Shown here: positions 25,901 to 62,275 of the stretch, piece after piece | Layout: every line of letters starts with the position of its first letter | Position numbering within the stretch: the stretch's first letter is position 1 | From: Marsupella aquatica | Taxonomy: Eukaryota > Plantae > Marchantiophyta | Length of the DNA stretch: 64,000 nt | Reading direction: 5' to 3' | NCBI GenBank assembly: GCA_973895155.1 | Contig: OZ316893.1 | Span: 496,860 to 560,859 of the forward strand | Notes under the pieces: generated by a model | The model's database searches: none | What the model saw: the letters and a program-made list of their open reading frames with translations, nothing else | Told to the model about the DNA's origin: nothing | Position numbers and translations under genes: made by a program

Positions 25901-26077
25901 CCTAACCCTAATCTTGTTTTCACCCCCAGCGTCCTTACCTCCGGCCTCGGCCCGGGTTCCATAGTCGCCCCTAATTGTTTATATTTTCCTTGTTTTGTCC
26001 CTATACTAAGGTGTTTCTAGGGTGCATTCCTGCTTTACCCACTTAACTGGCCGAGTGATTCCTGGCTAGGCATCACA
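22947..26077 (-). mobile_element. Family-3 Gypsy LTR, copy C, 3'-truncated, carrying a disrupted LTR ORF
   Basis: Starts on the minus strand with TGTGATGCCTAGCCAGGAATCAC at 26077. ORFs 25187-25738, 23828-25162 and 22931-23668 closely match the proteins at 46750-50117 and 58490-61899. Internal stops at 25187 and 23828. Confidence 0.9.
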
Positions 26078-27680
26078 GAAATGCTATTGTTATTTACGCG
26101 AGCACATTGGTACAAATAGTGGACAGATGAGGAAGGGCCGTCAAAGCGGATGTAGGCATGGATGGGGAGAGATGAATTAGGGCCAGGCTTTACAATTTGC
26201 TAATCTTGGCAGAAGTTTCCAAAGAGAATCCGATGCTCAGATGGGAAAGTGAGCCAACATTAACCAAGGCACAGCTCTAGGTCTGCCCCCCCACCCGCGA
26301 CACCATTCATGATGAAATTCAGATCAAACAAGAATGAGAAGCGGGGACTTTTGAGGAATACTGGGAAGGAGATGTTCTCAGTGCTGGAGAAACCCCGAGT
26401 GAAATTAAACAAACAAAAGACGCCTTCTTGAGCAAAATGCATGGAGACGCCGCAGGTGGGTGCGCGCAGCTGCATGCATTCAGAATTAACGCAAGGAACA
26501 TAAAGTTGGCTTTAATGCAGCTTTTGCAGCGCAATTTGGTCTCCCATTGATTGAGGCAGGCGAGCGTACAATAGTAGAGACAGCTGACCACACTTAAAAA
26601 AAAGTTTATTAAAATGCTTGGAGAGGTAAGGAGTAGGTACATCTGTCAAAGTCGGGATTACCAATAAATTCATCGTAATGGGTTAGATATTTTTTTCCCT
26701 CTTTCATAATCGATCCTTACTTGTTGAATAGCTAACGAGGGTTGTGTTCGGAGACATCCTGTTCGGATAGTTTATTCGGTGATGGTGACGGTGACACTAG
26801 CTAGGACAAGAATGCCAACGAGTATTGATGCATAGATTGGGAAGTTGTTCGTCCCGAGATTCCGGTATTTTATATTTTCCACCGATATATTGCTGGTAAC
26901 CCTTTGCGTTTCCGGAGAGCCTAACGATTGGGTTGTCTGTATGAGATTTGGGAGCTCATTGACTGTCTGCATTTTGTCATAAAAATGCTTATAGCGTAAC
27001 CTGGGTGCAAAAGGTGTGCCCTCAAAAAAGGCAAGTTAAAGTATCATAGAGTAGTAGAATCGCGTCCTCATAGCCAAACACAACATTCATGCATGAAGGG
27101 AGAAATCTTGTTTGGACAAAGTGTCCAGGCAACCTTGGGTTGGTTGCTCCCTGTGCTCCACCTTTAAGTTCCCCCCCTCCATCCCTAATAGAATTGAAGG
27201 ATTAAAGGAGACTCTTAATGTCTTGGATGTACATTCATTGAAGATGAAGCTGAGGGAGTTAATTCATTCAAGCGCGCGAGGGACATCAACAAGTTTACGG
27301 TTTAACATCCCCAAGAGGTAGTACATAGAATCTTGGAGTACACATGGAATGCAGGTAACGTGTGCGTCATAATAAAACTCATAGATTGGTCAATTCCCGT
27401 AGGTACTTGAACCATATATAGGGAGCCAATAATAGCAGCCAGACAAGCAGATTCCCCTCAGTTGCTCGGTATCATATCACACCAATGATATGTAATTATT
27501 AGACGTTGCCATTGCCATTGTAAGTTTTTGGTAAGTCGGGAGCAACTTCACAGGACCGATTAATATCATTTAGGGTTTTAGAGTACAGGACCCTAAATCC
27601 TGATTGAACCCGAGATTGAACCCTAAAGCAAACCAATAATAAAACGTACCATTCACAGCATAGGCCACCAAAGGGCTCGG

Positions 27681-29237: not shown

Positions 29238-31597
29238 CCTGGCCCATTCCGATTCCGGTCTATCAAGCGCCCCAGTAAACCATTTACTTAGTAGATGCCA
29301 GCACTTTATATGCAGGATTCAGAAGAATAGCCGTTCCGCCTCTACCATCGTCAGGAGCAGAGTAAAAGTGTTGATAGTTGGGCAAGATCGTGCGTAGGGC
29401 CAGATCCAACCAAAAGCTATCCGCCTTTACTTCCTGTAGAGCGAGAGCATCTAGGGGCAATTTTCAGAGAGGATGTCCATTTCATTACAACATTTTTCCG
29501 GTCAGGGTCACACAGACCGCAGACGTTCCAAGACGCAAAATTAAAGGGCGCCATCCATATATATGACACCACAAAAGGTATACCACCCACGGCTTAGCCT
29601 CTCATCCCAAGCTGAGCAGCACAATTTAAGCAGAGGGGATAGAACCAGCGGGAATTCCCGTTAAAATATCAGAAGAACCGGGTACCATGCCAGGGGAGGT
29701 GCTGCGAGATATAGCCACTGTCGTATCTACCTCCAGGGAAGAGCCCTCAGATTGCTTCTTGTGATCACGTTGCAGCTTACATCCAGGTGTCACCCATCCT
29801 CCCGCGTCCTGCAAGGTAGAATCAGGGATGAATTGTAAGGATTTCTGATTTTTTGCTTTCTTCTTTTCCTTCTCTTTTTTCTTATCTTCAGGCGGTGATC
29901 TTCTTGCCAGCTTTCGGGCTCTCTCCTTTTTTTGGGCGGTGCGGGAGATAAATCCCTCGTACTCAGAAACCTCCATGTCAAATGGAATCTCAGGGGTAGA
30001 ATGCTCATCCTCGGCCTCTACCATTTTGTTAGAAACACCAGCGTTTAAAAGCAAAGGCACTACTGGTTCAGCTTCTGGGGCACTAGGACTAGTTCCAGAA
30101 TGCAAGAAAGAAAGCTCAAGAGTAGCGACAGTGTTCAAAATAGGCTCGTCCCTGTTCATAGCTTGCAAGTCATGCAGCACTCCCGGGCCGGGATGGCATT
30201 CATGTCAGAAAAAAGATGAGCAGACGTTACTTGCAAATTCAATCCGTCAGTAGATTCGTCAATTTCCCTATCAATAGCAACTGCACGAGAATCCCCCTCA
30301 AGATCTTGAGAACTCCCAAAAAGCGCAAATTCTCCTTCCGCATTCATAGGTAGTCTTTGAGCCAATGGAGTGATACTCCTCCCCGTTGATAGGGGCAAGG
30401 TAGCAACGGTCGCAGGATGGCTTGGCTGATCTGAATTAAGGGCATCAGCCTCCAATGCAACAACAACCAATGGCTCAGTAGTCGCAGGCACCAGGGGAGT
30501 TGGCAGCTCCTCAGCAAGTTGAGTGGCTGCAGGCGCAGGCACCTCATTTACTCGACAGTCCCGGGCTAAATGGCCCTTCTTATTGCAGCTAAAGCAATGA
30601 AATGGAATATTCTTGAATATTACTGGTTGCCATATAGAAAGATCAGCCTTGATCTGAACCTCCACACTCAATGGCACCTCCCGCTTGGTATCCCAAATGT
30701 CACGTCGTAGGCTTCGGCCTTAACTCAGACTTGAGCTTAGACGGGCACATCCCTCGTAAATCTGAGGGTTCGGGCAGGAAGGGAAGCACGGAATGCACCT
30801 TATTATCGTAAACTAGCGCTAAGTGCGCATACTGCTAAATACGGACACCTCCTAGGTATGGTTTGTGTTCCGCCGCCGGAACGTACCTTAGTCGATAGCA
30901 GGATCGACCCCGGCTTAAGGGCTTCTAAGCCTTCGTGCTGTCCGCCTTCGATCCGGATTCGATGATACAGGTCCTCAACCCGTGCTCGCAACCACTTACC
31001 CGCAGGCTGCACCCTGTGCACGTCTCGGGTAGTGCGTTCGGCCCGGCGCTGCCACCCATATACGAGAAACCCACACACATATGCGCACACATGCATACAA
31101 TCTCGATTTACACGAAGGAAAAATGATGGGAAAGGATTTTACTACAAAGGGAACATATGCGTACACTTAGTTGACACGACAGCCCTGGAATGCACAGGTT
31201 CAAGGCCAAGGGTGCACACTACAACGGAGCCCGGCTCCGCACTCACCCGACGAGCTTAGTCCTACCCCCTCCCCTTGGTACTCTGTCATTCCCAGAGGTC
31301 GGGACTCCCCGCATATCCCGCGGATGTCCGACTCTGAAACTAAAAACCCCCCCCTTGCCTCTACCGAGGGGTGCACTAAATACTAAGAGCCGAGGAACGG
31401 GGTGTCCTCCCGCCGAAGATTCGCTGACCAAGGTCCTAACTAAGCTGACAGTCAGGCCGGAAAACGGCTATGTCTTATTAGAAGATCCTAATCTACGCAG
31501 GCTGGACAGCAAGGCAGCGCTGCTGTACCTAAGGTAGGTGCCTGTCCCAAGAGCCTGACTAAGCCAATCCTAATCCTAATCTATTCCTACTCCACCG

Positions 31598-34228
31598 CTA
31601 ATGCCTGGCACGCTTGCCAGAGCCGCCCGAATGGGAACGGCCATCCCGCTGCCTTCGAAGCCTGTCATTGTCCGCTTTGAGGAGCTGGACCTGGTCCAGC
31701 AGAGATTCGTTCTCTCGCCTCGCCGCGTCCGTCTCCTCTGCTGCCTCCTGACATGCCTCCTCCAGCTGCTGGGCGTCGCTCGTCAGTTTACTCGCCAGCT
31801 GGTCCTGCTTCTCAGCCTCGGTTTGGAGCCGCGCCATCTCGGCCTGCAGCGTGGCTATCTCCGTCGCGTCCCGCTGGGCTCGCTCCTCGGCCTCCTCCAA
31901 GTCTTTCTGCCAGGTGACAGCTTGTTTCTTCAAACTGTCAATCTGGTTCCGGAGTCGTGTAATCTCGGCCTCGTTCCCAGCTTTGGCCTGTTCGGCTAGG
32001 GCGGTAAGAGCGTACGCCTTTGCTAACAACTCATCGGCGGCTGCAACCTTGGGTCGTAGTTGCAGAAGCTCAGCCTCTTGAGCCGCCACTTCGTTCTTTA
32101 GGTACACGGACTCCACCCGGTACCGCTCTATCCTCTGAAGGGCCTCCGACTGGGCCCGCCCTGCCTTTACGGCGGCAACCAACTCCTGATTGAAGAAACA
32201 GGCTACCTTCCGGGCCATGAACTCCCCGGTATCCCGGGCAATTTGATGAGAGAAATCTCCCAGAAGCCCGTTCAGAAACGTACCCTGTACGAAGAGTTCC
32301 GGGTGGTCCAAGTTGTGCCTGTCCGGATTTGGGCACGGGCAGACATCAACACGCGCAGGGGCCGGGGCAGTGACGTCCAGCCCTGGGGACATAACGTTGG
32401 AAGGGGCTGGAGTGTCCTCCTGTAGCAATGTCCGGTTCTCCGGAATTGCCACTGGCGGGTCCTTGGGAGACCCGGGTTCGGGTAAGACCTCTGCCGTACC
32501 AACTTCTGTACTTAGCCCGGCTAGTTGGGTCGCATCAACGGTTGCGACGACCGACCCCTCCGGCGCCTCCTCGGTTACGATTACAGCTATTTGTGGAGGT
32601 GGGGTGGGTGAAGCTGGCGTGTCCACTGGACTTCGGGCCTCGGGTTGGGGCCGTCTCTCCAATGCCGGAAAAACCCACCTAGCTGGGACCAGCTTTGTAA
32701 CGTTGATGCGGGGAAGGGTTCGTCGATCAAACCGGGCGTACCACTCAAGAATGATTTCGATGTGGCTAGCGAAATACGCCTTCCCGCCAATGTACAGCGT
32801 CTTCCTTCGCCGCTCCATCTCTTCATGGAATTTCTTAGCGAAGTACGACGCCCATTTCCTAGGTCGATAGTTCTCGACCTGGATGACCTGGGCGGCGGAG
32901 ATCTCCCCCCGGGGTTCCATCATGTGGAGAGCGTACCTCTGGAACTCCAGCCGCTCAGCTATCTCGGGCATGAGGCAGGTCCTCATCACGAACCCGTTGT
33001 CTACTGATCCCTCTGAGGGAAAACTTGAAGATTGGTACTTGGCCCCCTTGCCACCGGGAGCCCGTGATTCGACTCGATGGTCACCTTCGGGTAACCCGAA
33101 GATCATCTTGAGCCGTTCTTCTGTGAGGGACATATTCCTTCCCCGCAGCCGAGTCTGTTGACGTACGTCGTCATAATTCTTGACGAATTCTGTCATGTCC
33201 TCCCCGTAGTACCTGCAAGTGTTCCAGGGGAGAGAGGCGAGGTGCTCAAATCCCTGAGTCTTCAGGTACACCGCATGCTTGGGATGGAGGATGTTGCTGT
33301 GAACGTTTTCCCCCATGCGATGCATCGTTACCTTGGCTACAGCTACCGTGGCCAACGGTAACCCGGATGCACTGGCGGATTCCTTCCTCTTCTTTCCCCG
33401 TGACTGACTCGGGGAAGGTGATACTTCCCCATCCTCCCGATCGGGCCTGGGGAGTGCCACTGCGGTTGGTAACGGGCTCGGGGCGGCCACGGTCACCATG
33501 TTGTCTGCTGGGGCCGCTTCTGGGGTCAGAGCAGGGGGTGGGGACGATATAGTGTCGGCCCCCCGAGCGCTTGTTCCTCTGGGCCGCCTGGTCAAGGGTG
33601 GGGGAGCCTCGTCGTCATCGCTAAGATCCACAGCGTTGATGACGGAGCGTACCTGTGCTGGCTGGGTGATAGGTGGTGGGGTTTGGCTAGGCTGCGGCTG
33701 AGGCTGAAGCTGAGGTTGCATGGGCACGGGTACGGGTACGGGCCCGGCTGAGTTGGTCATGTTGGTTGATGGCCGAGTTCCCATGAAGCTCTGTAGGTGC
33801 TGGTAGAAGTTCTCCGAAGCGAGTGCAGACGCCCTTGTCGAATGGTTGGTACTGGACTCGCCGTTAATGACAGCCCGAACCTGGGCAGGGATGTGGTCAA
33901 AGTGATGTCGCTGCAGGTCGATTGTACCCGGGATATTGAAGACCTCGTCCGGAAGCCGAAGCAATGCTTCCCAAAACCCGATATATTTGTCTCCGTTGAA
34001 GAAGTACCCAGATACCTCAGCTGGTCGGTAAAGCTCGCTCTGAGACGGGTAGTCAAAGTTAAGGACGTAGTGGTGTCGTCCTGCTAGGCGGATGGCTCTC
34101 TCGTATTCGCGTTCGATCTCGTATCGGCGCGGGTTGGCGTGTTTCAATGAATCGGCCAAGTGCCTTCCGGTAGATAGGAACTACGTCCAGAATCGAATGG
34201 CCGAGCTAGAGAGGATCGTGTGCGACAT
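31598..34228 (-). CDS. LTR-encoded protein, family 1 (~876 codons from ATG 34228; one TAG at 34181-34183, then 853 aa open): PMD-like core plus coiled coil
   Basis: The in-frame ATG gives MSHTILSSSAIRFWT*FLSTGRHLADS. Core GFEHLASLPW...EFVKNYD...TRLRGRNMSLTEERLKMIFGLPEG, Pro-rich linkers, a C-terminal heptad-rich region and a basic tail. Confidence 0.75.
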
Positions 34229-34329
34229 TCAGAGGAGATAGTAGTGGCGACCTAGAGAGAACGAGAGAGCTGGGGTCAAAGCTGGCGCGCGGACTGATGG
34301 ACTGGTGCACTACAAAGGGTTGGCTCCCC

Positions 34330-34336
34330 TTTTATA
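34330..34336 (-). promoter_or_regulatory. Candidate LTR TATA box, family 1
   Basis: TATAAAAGGGG on the minus strand, ~360 bp inside the LTR start and ~100 bp upstream of ATG 34228. Confidence 0.55.
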
Positions 34337-35124
34337 CTTTGAGGGCTTGTCGATCCCTGACGTCTCCTCGACGCCCATAGGTTGAACCGCTCACGCTTGT
34401 GGTGTACCGGCCACTCCGCCGGTCTGAGTCAGCGTGCGTCAGTGGCCGCTTCCTTAAGTTCGTTATACGGACCCGAGGGAGGGGCCCCTCCACGCTCGTA
34501 ACCCGGGTGTGCGAATAGCGACCCGCCGCCAGCCCGAACCTGAAGTCCCCCTTATTGCCTAATGATGTCCTACCCCTAATGATTACCTAAATACTGTCGT
34601 TATGCTAATAATAGCGGCCTAAGACCCACCTAACGCGCGTGCCGAGCGCAGTTAGACTGAATCACTCATTAACCGCCGTACCGGCGGCGTCACACCAAAG
34701 TACACAGGCCCTGTCGTGTGGATAAGTGCTCAGGTCGTCACCCTGAATATAGTGAAGAATGTCGCCCAAGGACGCAGCAAGCTTCCGACGACAAGGTTCA
34801 AGTAGCAATGCACCGAATGGAATCTCAATCCACACAGGCAATAAGGTATAAGATTCACTTCTGATGTCAAAGGAAGGATCCCAAGGGAAAGTGAATACAA
34901 ATTTTTGCTCCAAGAACCAGGGGGCACAAGCCAGTGCAAAATCTCGATGTTTGGGATTCCTGAATGCTACCATATAGAAGTTTTTCCCAATGAATTTGAC
35001 TTGCGAAACAGGCCAATTCATCTCAGAAACGAAGGTCTTCTCCACCCAGAACTTAAATGTGGACAGCATCGGTGCGCGATTAGTAAAATAACACATCATG
35101 GAGCAGTTATACAGTTTGGTCACC

Positions 35125-46142: not shown

Positions 46143-46373
46143 TGTCACTTGCCTATCCAACGATTAATGCGTGCCAACCGTACTTTTCCTTGCTTAAACC
46201 GTTGGTATCGTATTACGGGGTCGTGGAGGGACGCTATTTGGAGGATTTTCACACCTAAGGATGAGTATGTTTGATTCCGCTCCCGGAAGTGTACTTTTTG
46301 ATCAAGTCTACCGACTGGTCTCTCCATTTTTGATCAAGTCCAAGGGACTGGTTCTACCATCTACAACTCATGC
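46143..46373 (-). repeat. Family-2 5' LTR remnant (U5 end)
   Basis: Matches 35125-35355; cut at 46373 by the family-3 LTR start. Confidence 0.93.
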
Positions 46374-46467
46374 TGTGATGCCTAGACAGGAATCACTCGG
46401 CCAGTTAATTGGGTAAAGCAGGAAGGCACCCTAGGAACACCTTAGTATAGGGACAAAACAAGGAAAA

Positions 46468-46473
46468 TATAAA
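46468..46473 (+). promoter_or_regulatory. Candidate LTR TATA box, family 3
   Basis: AAAATATAAAC is conserved in copies A, B and C, ~95 bp inside the LTR start and ~280 bp upstream of the ORF ATG. Confidence 0.45.
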
Positions 46474-46749
46474 CCATTAGGGGCAACCATGGAACCCGGG
46501 CCAAGGCCGGAGGTAAGGACGCTGAGGGTGAAAACTTGATTAGGGTTAGGGCACGTTAAGCATCGGCGGCTAGGAAGGATCAACGGGAAGAAGGACCGGC
46601 AGAGGAGAGGGGTAAGGAGCGCTTGCAGGAGATGGTGGCTCATTTGCAAGCACGAACTAGGCAGACGACTACGGAAGGCCAACTACTGTCAGCTGCTTAG
46701 GCAAGCACTCGGGGAGAGAGTAGATACCGACGATCGACCTAAGGAGGGT

Positions 46750-49700
46750 ATGAGCAACGTCAATCAAGCGGCACATTTCTGGGGATGCCTGTTCAAACGG
46801 GCAACTGAGTACATCAAGACTTACGAGGACGAGGAATCAGAAAGGGCAGCTCGAGAACGGCAGGAGCTCGCTTGATTGTGGGAGCTGCAGAAGACGGCTT
46901 TCTTAGGAGGCGAACTCATCAAGGACGAGTTCCTGTGGACGCCTACTTCCAATCAACTCGACGATCTTCTGTTTTGCAAAGACAGCGTCGTCGGCATCCG
47001 AGAGGCCATCAAGAACTGCAACGACATACACTGGGAATTAAAGGGTAGCACGGAAAGGTGGACCCAGGCAACGGTGCTAGGAGAAACCTCCACGGCAGCA
47101 GAGATGAAGAGGAAGGGAGCCGTCAACGATGAAGCCACCCCGGCAAAAAGAACGAGGTCGGCGGCACCAAAGAAGCCAGCCGAGCAGAAGAGCAGGAGGC
47201 AGGGAGAAGCCGAAGAGGAGGAGGTCGATCCCATCAAGGCCATTCCAACCAGGGATGACACCTGGAAGGGCTGGGCGGCAACCCTACCGGTGGAGGTGCA
47301 ACTACATTTTGCACGGGAGGAGGATGCATGGTTCACGGCCATGCAGACCAAGAAGTACCAAGGCTTCATGGCCGGATCCGGCTTAGAGGCCTTTGTAAGA
47401 TTACCATGGCTGAAGCCGGAGGTACCGGAGTCAGACCTATTAGAATTCGTGGGGTCATGGGAACCCGAGACCAATTGCACGAGGATATATGGGAAGGATT
47501 TCTATCTTACTCCCAAGGTAATTGCCGAAGTGTTTGGTTTGCCGATAGGCAATAAGACCAAAGTTGATACCAGGAAGACCTTGCCTGACAAGGAGTTCCG
47601 GTCGTTCCCTGGGCCATCAACGAAGAATGGCTTCTTCCGGAACACCTGCACCAACCCGCACATAGGAGAGATGATCGACTTCTTGCGGGTGACCATGCAT
47701 TGTAACTTGCCGAGGGCAGAGATCGGCAAGGCACAGGTCTATCTGGCAGAAAGGCCAGACCCAAGCCGGGACTACAACGGGTACCTCCTCAACCAATTGA
47801 AGAAGATCTTAAAGGAGGAGCAACAGGTAATCGGCATGGGGAGCGTGTCACGGCTTGGCTATCACATGCCGCTATTGTGCCGGTATGCCAGAGGTCAGAC
47901 TTTTGCCCCAGTACTTCCCCTGCAGGTAAGGGCACCCGAGGAAGCTCCAACGCCGAGGCCGTTGGCTGAGAAGCCTCAACCACCTGTTAGCCCTACGATC
48001 GAGCAGGTGTTTAGGCCCAGGAAGGAGGACTTGCCGATGCAGCAACCAGGCATGCAGAGTCTGCTGAAACTACTGGAGAAAGAAAAGAAATCGGCATCGG
48101 CAACGGCAACGGCAACAATGCAGGACACTACTACAGAGGTAGGCCTACACCGGCTCACAAGAGAAAACCCCTTTGCTGGAGACAAGGAGAGAATCAGGCC
48201 GGAATCCAAGCCAGGTGTTCGAATGTACGTGGGAATCTCAAGCTCCGAATCTGAGGCAGATTGCCCGAAGCTCCTACCGACGAAGAGGAGAGGGAGAAGC
48301 CGGACGTCCAAGAAGTAGAGGAGGCAGTGGAGGACTGCAGCCATGATAATTCCGACTATGGGTCGGACCATCACGTTCCAGGAGTAAGGACCTGTGGCCG
48401 GTTTGTCCCCACACTTCCAAGGGTAGTGCGAGGGGACCCCAACCAGCAGAGTAGCCCTGAGTCTCCCCCACCAGATGTTGCTCCCCCGAGCTTCGACGGC
48501 ATAAAACAGATGGTGCAGGAATTTCAGGAGCGAATCAGGCAGGAAGAGGAGGCAGCCCTGGCTAGGGAAAAGGATTTACCAGGAGGAGATTGGCCGGAGG
48601 ACATCAGGCGGCTAGCCGAAAAAGGAAGCAAACCTCTAGCCACGATTGAAGAGATCCGCAGGACAGCTTGGGAGCAGAGGCCGCGATGGGCGATGCCGAT
48701 CACTTCTACTTACTCCACCTACGCTAAGAATAGAGCCATGGAGTATGGTGAGATGTGTGGGGAACTTGCGCTCGGCATCTTTGGAGAGGACTTGGAGGTA
48801 GGACCCTTTTTCCATAGGGAGCAGTTGGAGAAGCACCAATTAGAAGAAGCGGTGGCTTTAGAGAGAAGCAAGAAGGACGAGGTCATTCGGCGGCTTAGGA
48901 GGATGGAAGCCAAGATTGAAGATCTAAGGGCGGCCAAGAAAGCCCAAGATGAACTGCGGATTAAACGACATGAGCTGAACATCATGCAGGGGCAGTTGGA
49001 CACCGCGCAGGCTGATAATCAGAATATCAAGGATAAACTGACTCAGACGCAGGGAGAGTTGGCCGACACGATCAAAGAGAGGGAGAAGTGGAAGCAAGAG
49101 CTGAAAAATACAGAGGAGGCCCACATAACAGCCAACAGCCGGGCCATGGCGGAGACCCAAAGAAAGGAATGGGCGTTGAAGGGGGAGCTCAAGAAAATCC
49201 GCGGAGCCCTTGAGCAGAAGGAGGCCGAGTTAGGGAAATCCTATCAAGGGATTATGGCGCTGCAGCATGAGCTTGCGTCCCTGACGGCCAGCTTCAAGGC
49301 CGACCTAAGGGAGAAGGACGAGATGCTCGAATAGACTTACGCCAAGATGAACCAGATGGAGTCTGTCATCATTGCAGAGCTCGACAAGGAGCTAAGAGCA
49401 ACCCGGGAGGAGAGGACTACCTTGAAACAAGAACGGGAGGAAGCCCAGAAGGAACTAGAGGAGGCATGCAAGGACCTGGATGAGACCCAGGAGGAGTTGG
49501 AGGAAATCACGAGGAAGATGGAGAACCTCCAGCGGCGGGCCGACAACCAAACGGAGCGGCTGAAGAAACAAGCCGTAGTATTTAAGTGCTTGTCTTCATC
49601 AGGCCCAACTCCAATTGGGGCAACCAAGTTACCAGGAGTGGTACTGGCCGAAGAAAAAGCCGCGCCAACTGCACCAGTGCCGGAAGTAAGTGGGAAGGGG

Positions 49701-50117
49701 AAGGGACCAGCTGCCGAACCAGAAAAGAAGAAAAAGCGGAAACCTTCTGGGTCAAAGAGTAATCCGACTCCACAAGCCGTGGTGACCAAAGAGGTAGAAC
49801 CAGCACCATCCTCCGGCATGAATACGGCAATAGATCCCGCTATCATCACAGGTGGGGGTGGTGCGGCCCAAGCCGAACTACTCAGTAAGGAGGCCGGTAT
49901 TCCAGATCCGCCTCTTGAGCAGGCCGGGGAGACCGTAGCCGAGGCTGAGGCCATACCCGATTCCCGAGCCGATGCCGACGCCGATGGTGGACCCAGTCAG
50001 GCCGATGGAGAGTTGACTCAGTCAAGGGCAGGTAATCTGTCAGGGAATGAGCCTACGGCAGTGGCTGAGGAGGAAGCGTTGGGGGTGTCCATTAAGGATC
50101 CACCACCGGTGTCGTGA
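46750..50117 (+). pseudogene. LTR-encoded protein, family 3 copy A (~1100 aa when repaired): PMD-like core plus long coiled coil
   Basis: Starts MSNVNQAAHFWGCLF. Stops at ~46873 and ~49332 and a frame-shifting deletion near 48260 relative to copies B/C. ORF pieces 46876-48318, 48261-49334 and 49347-50117. Confidence 0.85.
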
Positions 50118-51033
50118 CGGTGCAAGGGCGCCGTTCCTTTTAGGGAGGGCGGACGTGGAGGGAGGAGGCGTGAGTGAGCAGGGCAGGCGCGGATCTCCAA
50201 GTTTAGGATTAGGATCAGGACCAGGAGCGGCCCTGACACTTAGCTTAGTGGGATTGCGGTCCCACTGGTAGGAGCAACACTTGTGCTCCTGCCTTGCTGT
50301 ACATAGGTAGATTCGGGCAAGTAGATTACTGTTAAGTAGATTAGGCTTACGATGCAAAGAATGGCGGATCCACTACCAGGATAAGTACCTGGGCAGCGGG
50401 GAGCTCAGGGCCTCTTCTTTAGCAAGTTTTTAGTTTGCACCAGCCGGGCTGGGATCAAGTAGTACGAGAAGCTCTCGGTTAGTCATACATTGACCCTTGT
50501 GTATATTCATGTTTCCTCATGCCTAAGAGCTGAATAGAGTTGGCCTCACGGCTTAGTTCGCAGAGCTTGTGTATGAGATGTACTGTTTGTATGGCAAGTG
50601 CATGGTATGACTCAGTCAGAATGAGTCATTTTGCTATTTGTGTGTCGCATTAACTTGTGTGAAGAGTGCCCACATCAACCAAAAGGAAGGAAAGTAAGCA
50701 GGGGAGTGAGAGTTGGATGTGTCCAGCTGAGAGAGGTCTTAGCGGCTTAACCAAGCCTATTGGGGATCATTCCGGCGGCGGAATCCAAACATACCTAACA
50801 AGACGGAGGGGAAGACAGGGGAAGGCCTAGATTAGGCTGGCTACGTATCTCATGACCCGATGAAGGATCTGTCCAGTATATGTGTGTAAAATGTTAATAG
50901 TAGTAGTAGAAGGTTAGCAGCGTCCCATGCCGCTAAGCCGCGGAAACGGCCTCGCCAAGCGCGAAACCTGCGGGAATCGGCTTGAGCTGGGGGGTTTCTT
51001 GGGTTTAGGGAGCCATGGGACGCACCACATTTT

Positions 51034-51050
51034 TGGCGCTAGATGGAGGG
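51034..51050 (+). other. Primer-binding site, family 3 copy A
   Basis: TGGCGCTAGATGGAGGG, 4 nt after the LTR-terminal CA; tRNA not assigned. Confidence 0.75.
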
Positions 51051-51098
51051 GGCATTTCTTAAGCCATGAGATATGAAGTTAGAACGGAAGCGTAGGTA

Positions 51099-54000
51099 AT
51101 GATTGACCTTACGCCGAGGGAAGAAAGAGTGATTCAACGGGAGAGAGCTCGACTGCAGCAGCTCGCCGGGTGGCATGATACACAGCAACTGAGAGGGGCA
51201 GAAAGAGCTGGTAGCTCCAAAACTGGAAGTAGCGTCGAAGAAGACATACCAGAAGAAGAGTCGGTAAGGAGAAGTGAGTCTCCAACCGACATGGGGGAAC
51301 CAGAGGCACGGCCAGACGAGAGGCCAGGGACCAGATTGAGCCAGCGGTCGCGCATACATTACAAGGCATTTTATGGGAGAGGAGATGAGGATCCGGACGA
51401 ATGGTTGGATGATTTCGAGGGAACCGCTGCAGCAAATGGAGAATCGGCCATCAAGATGCAGATTCTTCCCGGCCTGTTCAAGGGTGAGGCTAGGCCTTGG
51501 TACAGAGCATTGGATGTGGAAGATCAAGCCATCTGGGATATCTTCAAAACACTCTTTGTTAAGGAGTTTCGACCCATTGGAACTTCAGAACTAGCAGTGC
51601 TGAAGTTGGGACAACTTCGGTTCAAGGAGAACAAATCCTTCAGGAAGTTCTTGCAACGCTTTCAGAAACTGGTAAGACGTACAAAGACCAATGCATCTGA
51701 AGGTATGCAACTTCAATGGTTGGTGAATGCTTTGCCACAGAAGATGAGTTTTGCAATTAGGAAGGAGAACCCTGAGACTTTAGCCGAAGCAATTAAGGAT
51801 ATTCAATTATACATTAATGCAGATATCACAAGCCGGAAGAAACAGCTTAAGTCTGAGAGTTCCTCATCAGAGGAGGGATCACCCCATAAGAAAAAAGATA
51901 AGAAGAAGAAACATTCTAAGAAGTATAGAAGTGATAAGTCAAGCTCGGATAGTGGGAGTAGCAAGAGTGAGTCATCTTCTAGTTCTGAAGAAGAAAAAAC
52001 TAGGAAAAGGAAGGGCAGAAGGAGAGGGAAGACGAAAGTCAAGCTGGAGGCTAAGCCACCAGATAACATCGTAGCCCTTACCGAGCAACTTAAGGCTATC
52101 ATTGCAGAGGTAAAACCGAAGAAGAAGGTAGTACAGGAGGATAGCTCTGTATGGTGTGCCTTATGTTATAAAACCGGACACCATAAAGATGCGTGTCCTA
52201 AGCTTAATACTAATCATGTTCGGCATGTGGCCGAGATCAGACCATGTCAGGGAGAAGTAGAGTACTTTTTAGGAGATGCCGCTGATAGTGTTTTCGGCAT
52301 CAGTGAGACTGGAGCACGAGACCTATCCAACAGACCTGCATCTCTATGGTCAGGGTTAAGGAACAATCCAGGAGAGATGTATCCTCGGATTATTCAGAAC
52401 CCGTCAGTACCTCCTAGGCCGAATGTGCAAAGATTTGCGGCGTGCTATAATTGTGGTCAACCTGGCCATTTTGCTAGAGAATGCCCGAATGCACGCAAAC
52501 AGGGTGATGGACAACCAGCTCAGCTATGTATGGGATGCCGACAAGAAGGTCATATGCTAGGGCAATGTTCTACTTGGTTGGCAGGCCTGGCCGCAAATCA
52601 TAAACTTTTGCCGGTCAAGATCTTACCGCCAGGTACTACCCCCGGAGGAGTTCAAATCAACCACATCGAACTAGGATGGCAAGTGGATGCCGAGGCAGAG
52701 TTCGTACCATCTGATGATGAGGCCGAAGCCCTATCAACCTTCTCAGAGGAGGATTTAGATCATGATTGCTACCGGGTCTCTACTCAATCTACCAGAAGGA
52801 AGGAAAGGTGGGATGGGCTGGCCAAAAATAAAGGGAAGGTTACGGAGGAAAAGATCGACTCTTCGTCAATATCAACAGAAGGAGAAGGGAGGGCTCCGGC
52901 AATACAGGTAAGCCATGAGCCCACCAGTGAACCCAATCCTTCACAAGATAGCGACTTCAATCGAGATCATCCTAAGTTGTTCTACCCCTCTGTTACGGCT
53001 AGTGTTAAGGAACAACTAAGAGAATTAGAAACCCTGGAGAATACCGAAGCCATTGCCAAGGATGTAAAACGAGCAAAAGCATTGTTCGCTTCGGAAGACC
53101 CAACAGCTGTGGAGACTAGCGTGGCAAAACTGGCCGAATCCAAGACGGAAACACCACCAGAGGAGAAGCCGATTGTTCCCTATGACCTGGCTAAAGATGT
53201 ACTAGAATCTAGAGTCTCGGCAACAGTAGGTCAACTATTGAAAAATAGCCCGTACTTCCGGAAGCAATTAAGGAAGGCTATTCTCGGCAAGCCGAGATTA
53301 CCCAAGGTAGCAACCAGATCCGACGTACTAATGATAGAAGAAGATCAAGGAGCCCCAACATTACCATTAATGATTCAAGGAGAATTATTACTATGGGTAC
53401 CCATCGATGGAGGATCAGGGGTATGTATTATGATTGATTCAACAGCAAAAGGGTGGGGTCTAACACCGGAGATGACTGGAAGAGTGTTGAACATGGCCAA
53501 TGGATATCAGGTCATTCCCACGGGAGTGTTAACCGGCATCAAGACAGAGATAGGAGGTATCTTCTTTAGCATTAACTATGTAGTAATGAAGCCGGTAAAT
53601 CCTACGTCATTCCGGCTATTGATTGGTAGGCCATGGCTGTACCTAGCCGAGGTAATAGAAGATTGGGGTAAAAAGTAGTTCACTTTCGGGACCCCCTCTA
53701 TCACGATATCCTGGGACACTAAGGATGACCGTAGGAAAAGCATAAGGGAAGTAGATGGGTACGACAGTGGACTGGAGTCAGCCGATGAAGTACGTTGGTT
53801 AGAATGCCTCACTGACCTAACCGAAGAAAGTGTCTTTGGACCAGAGGTACCCCCCAGCGGATTATGGCAAGAACCAATGGAAGGTGACTTGGAAGAAGAA
53901 GACGAAGAGGTCGAGGACTGCTTTACAATAGAATCCACCTTTTTAGCTGCAATTCCGGAGGAAGTAAAGGATGTAGACCAATTGGATGAAACGGCTAAGT

Positions 54001-55368
54001 GGGGAGCAGTAGCAGGGACAGTGGATTTTCTGCAGGCGTTGTGGCAGAGCCGGCAGGGTTCACAACGCCATCGATCATCGGCAAGGAATTAAATACCAAG
54101 GGATCGGCATACAAGCCGATTACGAGGGCAGAACAAATTGAGGCCCTATTAGAAGCCGAGAGAGCACAGCGGCCTGACTCTCAGGAGCAAGAGGTGGATG
54201 AGATGGACAGACACAATCCAGAGCCAAGGCAGGAAGGGGAGCCGACCACCAATTCAAAACCGAATAGACCGGCAAGGGGACAATCTATGGACACCAAGGA
54301 AGGGACCGACTCGGCTAGTCCAGCCGAGATTCCAGTTTATGGAGGTATGAGATTTTAGAGACTGGAAGCCGAACTGGACCCGAATTTGAAGAAGCAGATT
54401 AATATGATCCAAGCACGGCAATATCGGAAGCTCGACTTAGGAGAGGGAAGAGAACTGAACTTAGGGAGAAACCTAGCACCTGAGCTCGAGAAAGAGATCA
54501 GTGACTTATTGATTGAATTTCAGGATGTGTTTGCATGGAGTCACCAAGATCTAAAGGGAGTAGATCCAACACTAGGGGAACATCGAATTGATCTCATGTT
54601 AGGAGCCAAATCATTTCGACAACCAATTCGAAGGATGAACCCGAAGTATTCCCTGCTGGTCAAAACAGAAATCGACAAACTAGTGGAAGCTGGATTCATC
54701 ACTCCAGTCCTGCATTCAGACTGGGTGTCTCCAATTGTGATAGTTCCCAAGAAAGCTGGACCCGATGGTAAACCCAAGATCCGGGTTTGTCAGGATTACA
54801 GGAAGCTGAATGAAGCAACATTAAAAGACCATTTTCCTTTACCGTTTACTGATATGGTACTAGACATGGTAGCCAGTCATGAACTATATTCATTCATGGA
54901 TGGATACTCTGGTTATAACCAAATCAGGATTCGGCAGGAAGACCAAATCAAGACGGCCTTCATCACGGAATGGGGGATCTATGTCTTCAATCGTATGCCG
55001 TTTGGACTCTGCAACGCACCAGCTATGTTTCAACGATTAATGGTGAACATTTTTCATGATTACTTGAGAAAGTTCATGGAAATCTTCATTGATGACTTTG
55101 CAGTATTCGGGAAGGCATCGAAACATGCTAAATACCTCAGGAAAACCTTCATGAGATGTAGAGAGGTGGGTCTCAAGTTACACCCAGATAAATGTTTCTT
55201 TGCAGTAACCGAGGGGGTGCTACTAGGTCACAAGGTATCAAGGAAGGGCATTGAGATTGACAAAGGTAAGCTAGCAGTATGGCTAGATATCATGCAACCT
55301 AAGAACATAAAGGATGTAAGATCCTTCTTGGGATGCATTGGTTACTATCGCCGGTTCATCAAGGATTT
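51099..55368 (+). pseudogene. gag-pol: Family-3 gag-protease-RT, disrupted and truncated
   Basis: gag FYGRGDEDPDEWLDDF and CCHC knuckles (CYNCGQPGHFAREC); protease VPIDGGSGVCIM in the same ORF; stops at ~53676 and ~54356 plus a frame change; RT (KDHFPLPF, FMDGYSGYNQI, IFIDDF) in 54386-55375. Confidence 0.92.
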
Positions 55369-57502
55369 TCAATAGTTGACCTACTGTTGCCGAGACTCTA
55401 GATTCTAGTACATCTTTAGCCAGGTCATAGGGAACTATCAGTTTCTCCAGTGGTGTCTCTATCTTGGATTCGGCCTGTTTTTTCACGCTAGTCCCTACAG
55501 CCGTTGGATCTTCCAAAGCAAACAATGCTTTTGCTTGTTTCATATCCTTGGCTATGGCTTCAGTATTCTCCAGGGTTTCTAATTCTTGCAGTTGTTCCTT
55601 AACACTAGCCGTGATAGATGGGTAGAACAACTTAGGGTGGTCTCGATTGAAGTCGCTGTCCTGTGAAGGATTGGGCTCACTGGTGGGCTCATGGCTTACC
55701 TGTGTTGACGGTGCCCTTCCTTCTCCTTCCGTTGATGTTGACGAAGAGTCGATCTTTTCTTCCTGAACCTTCCCTTTATTTTTGGCCGGCCCATCCCACC
55801 TTTCCTTCCTTCTGGTTGATCGAGTAGAGACCCGGTAGCAATCACAATCCATATCCTCTTCTGAAAATGTTGATAGGGCCTCGGTCTCATCATCAGATGG
55901 TCCAAATTCTGCCTCGGCATCCACTTGCCATCCGAGTTCGATGTGGTTGATTTGAACTCCTCCTGGGGTAGTACCTGGCGGCAAGACCTTGACCGGCAAG
56001 AGCTTATGATTTGCGGCCAATCCCGCCAACCAAGTAGGACATTGTCCTAGCATGTGACCCTCCTGTCTACATCCCATACATAGCTGAGCTGGTTGTCCAT
56101 CACCTTGTTTGCGTGCATTCGGGCATTCTCTAGCAAAATGGCCAGGTTGACCACAATTATAGCATGCCGCAAATCTTTGCACATTCGGCCTAGGAGGTAC
56201 CGACGGATTCTGAATAATCCGAGGATACATCTCTCCTGGATTGTTCCTTAATCCTGACCAGAGAGATGCAGGTCGGTTGGATAGGTCTCGTGCTCCAGTC
56301 TCACTGATGCCGAAAACACTATCAGCGGCATCTCCTAGAAAGTACTCTACTTCTCCCTGACATGGTCTGATCTCGGCCACATGCCGAACATGATTAGTAT
56401 TAAGCTTAGGACACGCATCTTTATGGTGTCCGGTTTTATAACATAAGGCACACCATACAGAGCTATCCTCCTGCACTACCTTCTTCTTTGGTTTTACCTC
56501 TGCTATTATAGCTTTAAGATGCTCGGTAAGGGCTACGATGTTATCTGGTGGTTTAGCCTCCAGCTTGACTTTTGTCTTTCCTCTTCTTTTGCCCTTCCTT
56601 CTCCTAGTTTTTTCTTCTTCAGAACTAGAGGATGACTCACTCTTGCTACTTCCACTATCTGAGCTTGAGTTATCACTTCTTGACTTCTTAGAGTGTTTCT
56701 TTTTCTTATCCTTTTTCTTATGGGGTGATCCCTCCTCCGATGAGGAACTCTCAGACTTAAGTTGTTTCTTCCGGCTTGTGAACTCTGCATTAATGTATAA
56801 TTGAATATCTTTAATTGCCTCGGCTAAAGTCTTTGGGTTCTCCTTCCTAATTGCAAAACTCATCTTCTGTGGCAAAGCATTCACCAACCATTGAAGTTGC
56901 ATACCTTTAGATGCATTGGTCTTTGTACGTCTTACCAGTTTCTGAAAGCGTTGCAAGAACTTCCTGAAGGATTTGTTCTCCTTGAACCGAAGTCGTCCCC
57001 ATTTCAGCACTGCTAGTTCTGAAGTTCCAATGGGTCGAAACTCCTTAACAAAGAGTGTTTTGAAGATATCCCAGATGGCTTGATCTTCCACATCCAATGC
57101 TCTGTACCAAGGCCTAGCCTCACCCTTGAACAGGCCGGGAAGAATCTGCATCTTGATGGCCGATTCTCCATTTGCTGCAGCGGTTCCCTCGAAATCATCC
57201 AACCATTCGTCTGGATCCTCATCTCCTCTTCCATGAAATGCTTTGTAATGAATGCGCGACCGTTGGCTCAGTCTGGTCCCTGGCCTCCCGTCTGGCCGCC
57301 CCTCTAGTTCCCCCATGTCGGTTGGGTAAACGTTTCTTCCTACCGACTCTTCTTCTGGTATGTCTTCTTCGATGCCACTTCCAGCTTCGGAGCTACCAGC
57401 TCTTTCTGCTCCTCTCAGTCGCTGTGTATCATGCCACGAGTTGCTGCAGACGAGCTCTCTCCCGTTGAATCGCTCTTTCCTCCCTTGGCGTAGGTTCAGT
57501 CA
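55366..57502 (-). pseudogene. gag: Family-3 gag, copy B (5' frameshift, 3' truncated)
   Basis: Protein closely matches the copy A gag up to ATVGQLLK, then reads into antisense RT of copy A. Confidence 0.88.
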
Positions 57503-57571: not shown

Positions 57572-60500
57572 TGTGGTGCGTCCCATGGCTCCCTAAACCC
57601 CAGAAACCCCCCTTCACAAGCCGATTCCCGCGGGTTCCGCGCTTGGCGAGGCCGTTTCCGTGGCTTAGTGGCATGGGACGCTGCTAACCTCCTTCTACTA
57701 CTACTATTAACATTTTACACACATATACTGGACAGATCCTTCATCGGGTCATGAGATACGTAGCCGGCCTAATCTAGGCCTTCCCTTGTCTTCCCCTCCG
57801 TCTTGTTAGGTATATTTGGATTCCGCCGCCGGAATGATCCCCAATAGGCTTGGTTAAGCCGCTAAGACCTCTCTCAGCTCGACACATCCAACTCTCACTC
57901 CCTTGCTTACTTTCCTTCCTCTATTAGTTGATGTGGGCACTCTTCACACAAGTTAATGCGACACACAAATAGCAAAATGACTCCTTCTGACTGAGTCATA
58001 CCATGCACTTGCCATACAAACAGTACATCTCATACACAAGCTCTGCAAACTAAGCCGTGAGGCCAACTCTATTCAGCTCTTAGGCATGAGGAAACATGAA
58101 TATACACAAGGGTCACTGTATGACTAACCAAGAGCTTCTCTTACTACTTGATCCCAGCCCGGCTGGTGCAACTAAAAACTTGCTAAAGAAGAGGCCCTGA
58201 GCTCCCCGCTGCCCAGGTACTTATCCTGGTAGTGGATTTGCCTAACTCCTTGCAGCGTAAGCTTAATCTACCTAACTGAATCTACCTATGTACAGCGAGG
58301 CAGGAGTACAAGTGTTGCTCTTACTAGTGGAACCGTAATCCCACTAAGCTAAGTGTCAGGGCCGCCTCCTGGTCCTGATCCTAATCCTAAACTTAGAGAT
58401 CTGAGCCCGCCCTGCCCACTCACGCCTCCTCCCTCCACGTCCGCCCTCCTTGAAAGGAGCGGCCTCCACCACCGTCATGGCAGCGGTGTCTATTCCTCAG
58501 TGGACGCCCCCAACGCTTCCACCTCAGCCAGTGCCATAGGTTCGTTCTCTGATAGATTACCTGCCCTTGACTGAGTCAACTCTCCATCGGCCTGACTGGG
58601 TCCACCCCCGGCAACGGCATCGGCTTCAACATCAGCCTCAGCTACGGCCTCAGCCACGGCTACGGCCTCCCCTGCACACTCAAGTGGCGGATTGGGTACC
58701 TCGGCTTTGTCATCCCCTTCTTCTAGGGTAGTTGGATCCTCCGCCGTAACCCTGCCTGAGGTCGGTGTTGGGTTTACCTCCTTGGTCACCACGGCTTGTG
58801 GAGCCGTATTACTCCTTGACCCTGAAGGTGTCCGCTTCTTCTTCTTTTCTGGTTCGGCAGCTGGCCCCTTCCCCTTCCCACTTACTTCCAGCACTAGTGC
58901 AAATGGCGCGGCTTGTCCTTTGGCCAGTACCACTCCTGGTAACTTAGTGGCCTCAATTTGAGTTGGCCCTGATGAAGCCAAGCACTTAAATACTGCGGCT
59001 TGTTTCTTCAGCCGCTCCGTTTGGTTGTCGGCTCGTCGTTGTAAGTTCTCTAGCTTCCGCGTGCTTTCCTCCAACTCTTCCTGCACGTCGTCCAGGTCCT
59101 TGCGCGTCTCCTCCAGCTCCTTTTGGGCTTCCTCCAATTCCTGTTTAAACGCAGCTCTCTCCTCCCGGGTCGCTCTTAACTCCTTGTCGAGCTCTGCAAT
59201 GATGACAGACTCCATCTGGTTCATCTTGGCGTAAGTCTGATCGAGCATATTGTCCTTCTCATGCAGGTCGGCCTTGAAGCTGGCCGTCAAGGACGCAAGC
59301 TCCTGCTGCAGCGCAATAATCCCTTGATAGGATTTCCCCAACTCGGCCTCCTTCTTCTCAAGGGTTCCGCGGATAACCTCGAGCTCCCCCTTCAATGCCC
59401 TTTCCCTTCTCTGGGTCTCCGCCCTGGCCCGGTTGTTGGCTGTTATGTGGGCCTCCTCTGCATCCCTCAGCTCTCGCTTCCACTTCTCCCGCTCCTTGAT
59501 CGAAACGGCCAACTCTCCTTGGGTTCGAGTCAGTTTATTCTCCATAATCCGATTATCAGACTGTGCGGTATCCAATTGGCCCTGCATGATATTTAGCTCA
59601 TGTCGCTTAATCTGCAGCTCATCTGGGCTTTCTTGGCCGCCCTCAGGTCTTTGATTTCGGCTTCCCTTGCCCTGAGCCGACAGATGACCTCGTCCTTCTT
59701 GGTTCTTTCCAAAGCCACCGCTTCTTCTAATTGGCGCTTCTCCAACATCTCCCTCTGAAAAAAGGGTCCTTGCTCCAACTCTTCCCCAAAGATGCTGAGC
59801 GCCAGCTCTCCACACATTTCCCCATACTCCATGGCTCTATTTTTAGCATAGGTGGAGGAAGTAAAAGTCATCAGCATCATCCACCGCGGCCTGTGCTCCC
59901 AAGCCGCCTTGCGGATCTCTTCTATTGTGGCTGGAGGGATGCTTCGTTTTTTTGCAAGCCGCCTGATGTCCTCTGGCCATTCTTCTCCTGGTAAATCCTT
60001 TTCCCTAGCCAGGGCTGCCTCCTCTTCCTCCCTGATTTGCTCCTGAAATTCCTGCGCCGTTTGTTTTATGCCGTCAAAGCTCGGGGGAGCGACATCTGGT
60101 GGGGGAGACTCGGGGCTGCTCTGCTGGCTCGGGTCTCCTCGAACTACTCTTGGGAGCGTGGGGATGAACCGGCCACAGGTCCTTACTCCTGGAACATGAT
60201 GATCTGACCCGTAGACGGAGTCATCATTATTGTAGTCCTCTACCGCCTCCTCCTCGGCTTGGACTACCGGCTTCTCCAGCTGTTCTCCTGGTTTTGTTGT
60301 GAACACGGCTTCACCTCTCATCGGTCTTGGTTCCTCCTCCGGCTTCCGTGTTGATCTCTTGTTCTCCTTGTCGTGGCCGGGAGCTACGGCCTGCTTCTCC
60401 TCGGCTTCGGGACTTGAGGCTCCGACATACATCCGGACTCCCGGCTCGTGTTCCGGCCTCCTTCTCTCCTTGACCCCAGTAAAGGGGTTTTCCCTTGTAA

Positions 60501-62275
60501 GCCGGCTTAGGCCCACCTCTGGAGCAGTGTCCTGCATTGGTGTCGTTGCCGTTGCCGTTCTCTTTTCCTTCTCCAGTAATTTCAGCAGATTTTGCATGCC
60601 TGGTTGCTGCATCGGCAAGTCCTCTGTCCTTGGCCTAAACACCTGCTCGATTGTAGGACTGTCGGGCGGGTTGGGTTTCTCCGTTGCCGGCCTCTGCTCT
60701 GGGACCTCCTCCGGTGCTCTTGCCGATAGAGGAAGTACTGGGGCAAAGATTTGACTTCTGGCATACAGACACAACAGCGGCATGTGATAGCCAAGCCGGG
60801 ACACGCTTCCCATGCCGATTACCTGCTGTTCCTCCTTCAAGATCTTCTTCAGTTGGTTGAGGAGGTACCCGTTGTAATCCCGGCTTGGGTCTGGCCTTTC
60901 TGCCAGGTAGACCTGAGCCTTGTCGATCTCTGCCCTCGGCAAGTTATAGTGCATGGTTACCCGCAAGAAATCGATCATCTCTCCGATGTGCGGGTTGGTG
61001 CAGGTGTTCCGGAAGAAGCCATTCTTTGTTGATGGTCCTGGGAACGACCGAAACTCCTTGTCAGGTAAGGTCTTCCTGGTATCAACCTTGGTCTTATTAC
61101 CCATCGGCAAGCCAAACACTTCAGCAATCACCCAGGGAGTGAGATAGAATTCCTTCCCATACACCCTTGTGGAATTGGTCTCGAACTCCCATGATCCCAC
61201 GAATTCTAACAAGTCTGAGTCCGGCACCTCCGGCTTCAGCCATGGTAATCTTACGAAGGCTTCCAAGCCGGATCCGGCCATGAAGCCTTGGTACTTCTTG
61301 GTCTGCATAGCTGTAAAGCATGCATCCTCCTCCCGTGCAAAGTGTAATTGCACTTCCTCCGGTAGGGTCGCCGCCCAGCCTTTCCAGGTGTCATCGTTTG
61401 TTGGAATGGCATTGATGGGGTCGACCTCCTCCTCCTCGGCTTCTCTCTGCCTCCTGCTCTGTTGTCCTGCTGGCTTCTTTGGTGCCGCCGACCTCATTCT
61501 TTTTGCCGGGGTGGCCTCTTCGTTGTTGTTCCCCTTCCTCTTCATCTCTGCTCCCGTGGATGTCTCTCCTAGCACGGTTGCCTTTGTCCACCCCTCCGTG
61601 CTACCCTTCAACTCCCAGTGTATGTTGTTGCAGCGTTTGATGGCTTCTCGGATGCCGACGACTCTATCTTCGCAAAATAGCAGGTCGTCTAGCTCGTTGC
61701 CAGTAGGCGTCCATAGGAATTCAGCCTTGATGAGTTCTCCTCCTAAGAAAGTAGCTTTCTGCAGCTCCCACAATCGGGCGAGCTCCTGCCATTCTCGAGC
61801 TGCTCTCTCCGATTCTTCGTCCTCATAAGTCCCAATGTACTCAGTTGCCCGTTCGAACAGGCATCCCCAAAAATGTGCCGCTTGATTGACGTTGCTCATA
61901 CCCTTCTCGAGTTGATAGTCGGTATCTATTCCCACCCTGAGCGCTTGCCTAAGCAGTTGACAGTAGTTGGCCGCCCGTAGTCGCCTGCCTAGTGCGTGCT
62001 TGCAAATGAGCCACTACTCCTCGCGAGCGGTCCTTACCCCTCTCCTCCTAAGGTTCTCCCTCCCGTTGGTTACCCCTAGCCACTGGCACTTAGTGTGCCC
62101 TAACCCTAATCGTATTCTCTCCCCTGGCATCGTTACTTCCTGCCTCGGCTCGGGTTCCATAGTCACCCTTAATTGTTTATATTTTCCTTATTTATGTAAC
62201 TATACTAAGGTGTTTCTAGGGTACACTTCCCTTTTCCCCTTAAACTAGCCCAGTGATTCCTGGCTAGGCATCACA
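57572..62275 (-). repeat. Family-3 5' LTR, copy B (4704 bp)
   Basis: Minus-strand termini TGTGATG...CACCACA; homologous to the copy A LTR. Confidence 0.85.
58490..61899 (-). pseudogene. LTR-encoded protein, family 3 copy B (~1135 aa with a single frameshift near 59620)
   Basis: ORFs 59593-61935 and 58490-59815 join at AAKKAQ/DELQIKRH by comparison with copies A and C. Confidence 0.85.

Follow-up and report, generated by a model that had tools for sequence, protein, structure and literature searches.

Long terminal repeats (LTRs) of retrotransposons are treated as non-coding control regions, and annotation pipelines mask them. Here we analyze a stretch of 64,000 nucleotides (nt) from the liverwort Marsupella aquatica (contig OZ316893.1), referred to throughout as the window; all positions are positions within it. 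The window is a nest of plant transposons with a G+C content of approximately 50%, and three units in it, copies A, B, and C, belong to one retrotransposon family, family 1. A 4.66-kb stretch that precedes gag in this family carries an accessory gene under purifying selection and is, in all probability, the 5′ LTR of an element of the Ty3/gypsy type.

In mouse mammary tumor virus (MMTV), the sag/naf open reading frame (ORF) lies in the U3 region of the LTR and has its own promoter in U3 (PMC9412291). The likeness to family 1 is that a whole protein gene sits inside the LTR, and so at both provirus ends. MMTV, a retrovirus of vertebrates, has a far shorter ORF whose protein is unrelated, whereas family 1 is a plant element of the Ty3/gypsy type with an ORF of approximately 1,120 codons, for which placement in U3 is only proposed. 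A full-text literature search for an ORF within an LTR, with subscription journals outside its scope, returned no plant retrotransposon case in the text it covered and gave MMTV as the sole confirmed one.

For plant LTR retrotransposons, extra ORFs are described in the internal region (PMC7264820, PMC6317226, PMC3485330), and a term look-up over the text of PMC7264820 found nothing on ORFs in the LTR. In Ogre/Tat elements of the Ty3/gypsy group, an extra ORF lies on the 5′ side and the LTRs can reach about 5 kb, and the same source records LTRs as long as this in non-chromoviruses and offers no coding explanation for them (PMC6317226); Retrosat2, RIRE3, and RIRE8 have an ORF0 before gag (PMC3485330). 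Like family 1, Ogre/Tat elements are gypsy elements of plants, their LTRs are very long, and just before gag they carry an extra ORF that evolves faster than gag-pol. The extra ORF is internal in Ogre/Tat, however, whereas here it lies upstream of a primer-binding site (PBS)-like sequence and recurs in a solo LTR, and the Pfam model of the plant mobile domain (PMD) has no match to it. Sense extra ORFs between pol and the 3′ LTR are represented by the env-like ORFs of Athila, Bagy2, and SIRE (PMC7264820). If the gene of family 1 lies in U3, it would resemble these as an accessory gene on the 3′ side of the genomic RNA; it differs in that the LTR boundary is upstream of the ORF and that env-like features were not found in its product. 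The PMD (PF10536; MAIN/MAIL1) has been called angiosperm-only (PMC8616336), whereas the named relatives of the protein described here, among the 10 looked up, come only from a liverwort, and the scanned proteins gave no hmmscan match to PMD.

Layout of the Family-1 Copies

Self-comparison of the window gave copies A, B, and C, which have identical starting letters (TGTGATGCC) and mutually unrelated flanks (Table 1). Including its internal part, copy A extends on the plus strand from 46374 to 53244 and on to 55375, and copy B, with 89% identity to A, occupies 62275–55366 on the minus strand. An earlier note on this DNA had placed the start of copy A exactly at a break in the LTR of a second family (46373/46374). 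This was borne out: the family-2 LTR stretch directly before A (46143–46373) matches 35125–35355 at 99%, and in public sequencing runs, which were used as contigs only, eight contigs (X1) and 11 contigs (X2) carry the family-2 LTR without interruption, continuing exactly as at 35356. Since A landed 26 bp inside the family-2 5′ LTR, it is younger than the family-2 element.

The rest of the layout given in that note also stood. Copy A ends with CACCACA at 51029, followed by TTTT and then, from 51034, by TGGCGCTAGATGG; the equivalent end of B is at 57572, and alignment showed that B has the layout of A inverted and that C begins alike and carries the corresponding ORF. The termini of A, TGTGATGC...GCACCACA, are of the TG...CA type with short inverted ends. 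The PBS-like site is conserved between A and B, the site of B being that of A minus one letter; the window holds no tRNA gene that could serve as a comparison set. An ATG 45 nt past the PBS-like site of A opens an 860-codon frame with gag, and the internal part of A matches the Pfam families Retrotrans_gag (E 4.4e-10), zf-CCHC (E 1.3e-8), and RVT_1 (E 1.6e-24). The order gag, protease, reverse transcriptase (RT), with no integrase before RT, is the Ty3/gypsy-type layout. Between the protease region and RT there are only about 226 codons, without a family match.

The copies had been called complete, which is true of the LTRs of A and B; the 3′ end of neither element is in the window. A and B meet tail to tail at 55366–55375, where RT of A abuts the gag/protease region of B. 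Because they meet at non-equivalent positions, the 3′ parts of both were lost, most simply through one deletion between convergent elements. Target duplications are seen only at a fourth unit, X, described below; A, B, and C are each without their other end.

Table 1. Coordinates of the family-1 copies, of the related solo LTR X, and of the element that X interrupts.
Feature	Position	Strand	Details
Copy A, probable 5′ LTR	46374..51029	+	4,656 bp, TGTGATGCC...CACCACA; inserted in 5′ LTR of family-2 element
TATAAA, sole one of A LTR	46468..46473	+	277 nt before ATG; B and C have theirs at the equivalent place
Accessory ORF of copy A	46750..50117	+	ATG 46750, stop 50115-50117, ~1,120 codons
Non-coding LTR tail of copy A	50118..51029	+	0.9 kb; includes 29-nt block common with X
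PBS-like stretch of copy A	51034..51053	+	TGGCGCTAGATGG..., TGG start, 4 nt (TTTT) past LTR end
Copy A, internal part	51096..55375	+	gag (Retrotrans_gag, zf-CCHC), protease region, RT (RVT_1); cut off at 55375
Copy B, probable 5′ LTR	57572..62275	-	4,704 bp; then TTTT, PBS-like site, gag 57499-55283
Copy C, truncated LTR	22946..26078	-	equivalent to A 46373-49415; TG start at 26078
X, solo LTR of distantly related family	30698..34694	-	3,997 bp, TGTGACGCC...GACGTGACA
Target-site duplication TTTGG at X	34695..34699 (upstream copy); other copy 30693-30697	-	5 bp
ORF of X	31598..34228	-	ATG 34228, TAG at codon 16 (34183-34181), then 860 open codons
TATAAA(A) of X, sole one	34330..34336	-	108 nt before ATG; CT-rich leader follows
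LINE ORF1, part before X	34695-35126	-	DUF4283 (E 1.4e-8)
LINE ORF1, part after X	30156..30692	-	zf-CCHC (E 7e-5); in frame with part before X

Coding Constraint on the Frame

The frame is broken in every family-1 copy, and, as the earlier note had claimed, at different sites in each, with no lesion common to two copies. Copy A has in-frame stops at 46873–46875 and 49332–49334 and a 1-nt shift near 48258; nearly all contigs of runs X1 and X2 have a letter other than A's at both stops. The ORF of B (61899–58490, minus strand) has one 1-nt shift near 59623 and is otherwise open (806 + 448 codons), and that of C has in-frame stops at 25187–25189 and 23828–23830. Gaps in the ORF alignment were multiples of three in six of eight cases (6, 84, 6, 12, 6, and 21 nt, the 84-nt gap being an in-frame gap of A relative to B and C), and the other two are the shifts. 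Outside the ORF, two of 12 gaps were multiples of three.

We compared nonsynonymous and synonymous divergence (dN/dS) among the aligned copies by the Nei–Gojobori method, with the two other reading frames as controls. In frame, dN/dS was 0.27 (A–C), 0.23 (B–C), and 0.21 (A–B), versus 0.99–1.37 in the two other frames. Between A and B, the N-terminal half gave 0.159 and the C-terminal half 0.345 (control frames 1.04–1.45), and gag gave 0.156. The 38 codons upstream of ATG 46750 had a dN/dS of 0.94, which supports that ATG as the start. Since decay after insertion drives dN/dS towards 1, the active lineages must have been constrained at least to this degree. This shows that the frame is a real gene under purifying selection, with coding constraint as strong as that of gag. 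The earlier proposal that the ORF was intact and maintained in the active ancestor is thus confirmed by both dN/dS and the indels, most of which come in threes.

A Solo LTR with the Same Layout

A tblastn search with the B protein revealed X, a unit absent from the earlier note (match at 33280–32732 on the minus strand, 28.6% identity over 185 residues, E 8.7e-17). X is a solo LTR that holds the gene plus the tail. Its termini are TGTGACG...CGTGACA, and it interrupts ORF1 of a long interspersed nuclear element (LINE), the frame of which closes once X plus one TTTGG is removed. TG...CA ends together with a 5-bp duplication are the signature of an integrase, and a lone TG...CA unit enclosed by target duplications is a solo LTR. 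Solo LTRs originate when two full LTRs recombine, so in the family of X the gene is inside the LTR. Self-comparison of X found no terminal direct repeats (the longest match was 13 nt), and neither a PBS nor gag was found after X. We considered whether the zinc knuckle that follows might be X's own gag and rejected this, as it belongs to the LINE ORF1.

The layout of X is that of A, with a short leader region, the ORF, and a tail of about 0.9 kb. Its ORF encodes the domain found in family 1 and a coiled-coil-like C-terminus, and an N-terminal start of the form MS...FW...L is common to X, family 1, and a liverwort relative. Because the target duplication of X encloses a homologous frame along with the tail, X supports the earlier placement of the ORF inside the LTR; it also argues against the scenario named at the time as the way that placement could fail, in which the 3′ LTRs correspond to the 0.9 kb only.

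The LINE remains extend over 28059–35126 on the minus strand, with ORF1 split by X, an endonuclease-like ORF2 starting near 29560, and zf-RVT at 28059–29318. The RT part of this LINE seems to be missing.

Placement of the Gene in Family 1

If family 1 is organized like X, we infer that its 3′ LTR would be the full 4.7 kb, preceded by a polypurine tract. Contigs from the public runs weakly favor this, each point being weak and all of them in one direction. Summed word depth over 46442–51256 was 3.7 times (X1) and 3.9 times (X2) that over 51257–55400, with ORF and tail alike, although summed word depth is not copy number. In X2, other copies of the unit follow 51029 at two joints, which makes 51029 an element end as well as the border between LTR and primer site. 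Before 46374, one 376-nt contig (X6) and two contigs (X5) end in a short G-rich purine run of the sort expected from a polypurine tract. A loose end at 50130, present in 32 contigs of X2, was examined as a possible LTR start and rejected; it is a B-type variant of the ORF end that continues into the tail, so there is no boundary there.

Extra ORFs just before gag are known from Ogre, Retrosat2, and RIRE3/8 (PMC6317226; PMC3485330), and family 1 could be built likewise, with an internal ORF, a short LTR at the TG start, a PBS before the ORF, and a TGG site at 51034 that is not the primer site. The language-model look-alikes of the protein, which are PMD clusters (0.84), fit this, PMD being the domain of Ogre extra ORFs. 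Such an element does not account for X, which has no terminal direct repeats and one target duplication and yet holds ORF plus tail. Nor are the first 376 nt of A repeated further on; the word depth of the ORF equals that of the tail, at 3.7–3.9 times that of gag-pol, and the joints mark 51029 as the element end. We consider this arrangement very unlikely. A slightly fainter prospect is that the 0.9-kb tail alone is the LTR and the ORF block a separate unit, either another element or a captured gene. In its favor, the A–B distance is 0.053 in the tail versus 0.159 in the ORF and 0.244 in the first 376 nt, and identity along the ORF is mosaic among the copies, with 95–97% between B and C at alignment columns 1500–2100 versus 75–82% for A–B and A–C. 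The mosaic pattern is what would be expected of recombination between subfamilies during reverse transcription. Against a separate ORF block, A and B have the same TG start with different flanks, so the whole unit moved as one; the duplication at X spans ORF plus tail; the 32 X2 contigs with the B-type variant run from the ORF end into the tail; and 50118–50130 contains neither a terminus nor a polypurine-like loose end.

X stands alone within a target duplication and has short imperfect inverted ends, as would a mobile gene unrelated to LTRs, such as a DNA transposon with short inverted termini, and one copy would then have been taken up in front of a retrotransposon. However, the TG...CA ends with a 5-bp duplication are an integrase signature, Pfam assigns no transposase family to the ORF, and A and B pass unbroken into the PBS-like site and gag-pol. 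Of these three placements, we give this one the least credence. A chance or decayed frame without function in purine-rich DNA is refuted already, and we treat its probability as negligible. The coding strand is T-poor (17.5% T) and every family-1 copy is broken, as such a frame would have it; still, at that composition one would not expect more than 800 codons in a row to be open, dN/dS is 0.16–0.35 in frame against at least 1.0 in the controls, indels inside the frame come in threes, and there are 18 protein relatives at E ≤ 1e-3 (top 1.6e-48).

We thus regard it as probable that the gene of family 1 lies in its LTR, and the following observations weigh against that placement. The window lacks any 3′ end of family 1 and hence offers no direct view of two LTRs around one internal part. 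X belongs to another family, so its evidence reaches family 1 by homology of layout; the two have 28.6% identity in the domain protein and only a 29-nt match in DNA. The G-rich purine ends come from only three contigs of two other, related organisms, and two further X5 contigs at 46372 have an A-rich end (agreement 0.55). As to the signals discussed below, one TATAAA per 4–4.7 kb is about what composition predicts, its position alone being unusual, and the first 376 nt diverge at about the gag synonymous rate (0.24 versus 0.22), which gives no argument for a constrained promoter there.

LTR Tail and Expression Signals

Each LTR contains TATAAA once, at LTR position 95–96 in the three family-1 copies and 359 in X, 108–277 nt before the ATG. 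From composition, we estimate the chance of finding it in the short part before the ORF in both families at about 0.07 × 0.05. An A/T-rich poly(A)-like motif lies about 110–130 nt before the LTR end. Regions comprising promoter, R, U5, and leader are strongly constrained in retrotransposons. The tail distance between A and B, set against a synonymous distance of 0.218 in gag, indicates strong constraint on the tail; the synonymous distance in the ORF is 0.36–0.47. In DNA, the LTR tails of family 1 and X resemble each other only over a 29-nt block (TTCCGGCGGCGGAA...AAAC.ATACCTA) at about 50770–50797 in A and about 30853–30881 (minus strand) in X, which may be a conserved cis signal.

With the minus-strand primer site downstream of the gene and the predicted plus-strand primer site upstream, reverse transcription would copy the gene to both ends of each new insertion. 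Each LTR would act as its own gene, with TATAAA before the ATG and the poly(A)-like motif near the LTR end. Tentatively, and at somewhat below even chances, we place the start of the genomic RNA in the conserved 0.9-kb tail, which would give a two-promoter LTR with the gene in U3, as for MMTV sag. Such a layout could stem from a 3′ extra ORF, if the polypurine tract shifted to the upstream side of that ORF; the neighboring family-2 element exhibits the arrangement before such a shift. A single promoter upstream of the gene, resulting in a giant R of about 4.4 kb, is an alternative that we judge rather unlikely. A model with the ORF in U5 was dropped: in X, the predicted start and the ATG are only about 70 nt apart, and this interval contains no poly(A)-like signal.

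The Encoded Protein

In the family-1 protein, a basic stretch is accompanied by a conserved domain (about 230 residues) and by a long C-terminal part that resembles a coiled coil. No Pfam family matched it, and the only rows, all sub-threshold, were of coiled-coil type (ATG16, GAS, Phage_scaffold). In a phmmer search of 1.84 billion representatives, 18 proteins were found at E ≤ 1e-3, the top one at 1.6e-48 with 40% identity over residues 198–424. No Pfam family scored above threshold in any of the 18, and several have the domain followed by an acidic or proline-rich stretch and then a coiled coil. Of the 10 that were looked up, two are assigned to a named organism, in both cases the liverwort Calypogeia fissa. 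The family-1 protein showed no transmembrane or env-like feature.

The nearest neighbors in the Atlas, which is based on a language model, were PMD clusters, at 0.84 for family 1 and 0.78 for X, values below the reliable level. A motif of the form W-x-ET-x-T...G-x-x-x-x-L-T...GLP is one that we take to be a likeness to PMD proteins. Even at E ≤ 10, neither the family-1 protein nor X nor any scanned relative matched PF10536 (PMD), and we treat the resemblance as a lead and not as membership.

Structure-based comparison did not provide clues to function. A profile search of the PDB gave top rows of only E 0.31 and 0.7. An AlphaFold model of the domain, made from 15 sequences, was poor, with a mean predicted local distance difference test score (pLDDT) of 54.3, and Foldseek of this model against the PDB gave no hit at E ≤ 0.001; a VANC21 row at E 5.7 was given no weight. 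Word-index protein searches returned no match at near lengths for the 806-residue piece and P0013 only for the domain alignment. A protein scan of metagenome contigs returned no relative, and the exact LTR-start pattern had 0 matches in them. A retrotransposon gene is selected only by how well the element copies itself, and for this reason the protein would be expected to serve the element's own spread.

Implications

A gene in the LTR is present twice per element, travels with the family's most abundant part, outlasts the usual deletion to a solo LTR, and can be expressed wherever an LTR lands. It would account in concrete terms for giant LTRs and open a testable path by which a transposon gene becomes a host gene. 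A bolder version, which we regard as doubtful, is that every LTR, solo ones included, is a free-standing gene with a TATA box, a leader, an ORF of 880–1,120 codons, and a poly(A) signal, and that its product is a nuclear coiled-coil protein and a deep relative of PMD of bryophyte age. If this is true, LTR–LTR recombination leaves genes behind and offers a direct route to host genes of the MAIN/MAIL kind, and LTR-borne genes explain why some plant LTRs reach 4–5 kb.

Other Elements in the Window

The family-2 element into which copy A inserted (35125–46373, minus strand) looks young and nearly whole, with LTR stretches that are 99% identical. It has gag and an uninterrupted 1,550-codon pol frame (39500–44152). 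An open extra ORF of 617 codons (36285–38138) with a coiled-coil-like C-terminus lies between pol and the 257-bp 3′ LTR, and this order of pol, extra ORF (38138–36285), and LTR is the layout of Athila, Bagy2, and SIRE (PMC7264820). By hhalign, the domain profile of the family-1 protein showed no similarity to this ORF (probability 0.5%). About 20 nt past the family-2 LTR is a PBS-like TGGCGCC... sequence. The site is presumably of tRNA-Asp type.

At 811–8430 (plus strand) are frames of a CACTA/En-Spm-type transposon, with Transposase_21 (2.2e-70) and DUF4218; DUF4216 and Transposase_24 were below the cutoff. A 232-codon frame at 10726–11424 (minus strand) contains a small methyltransferase domain (MTS, 4.3e-8) and may be a host-gene exon. 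Tandem repeats with a period of 121–122 bp occupy 16045–16805 and 20563–21278. Further duplicated segments lie between these tandem blocks, and the region as a whole (16045–22718) adjoins the truncated end of copy C.

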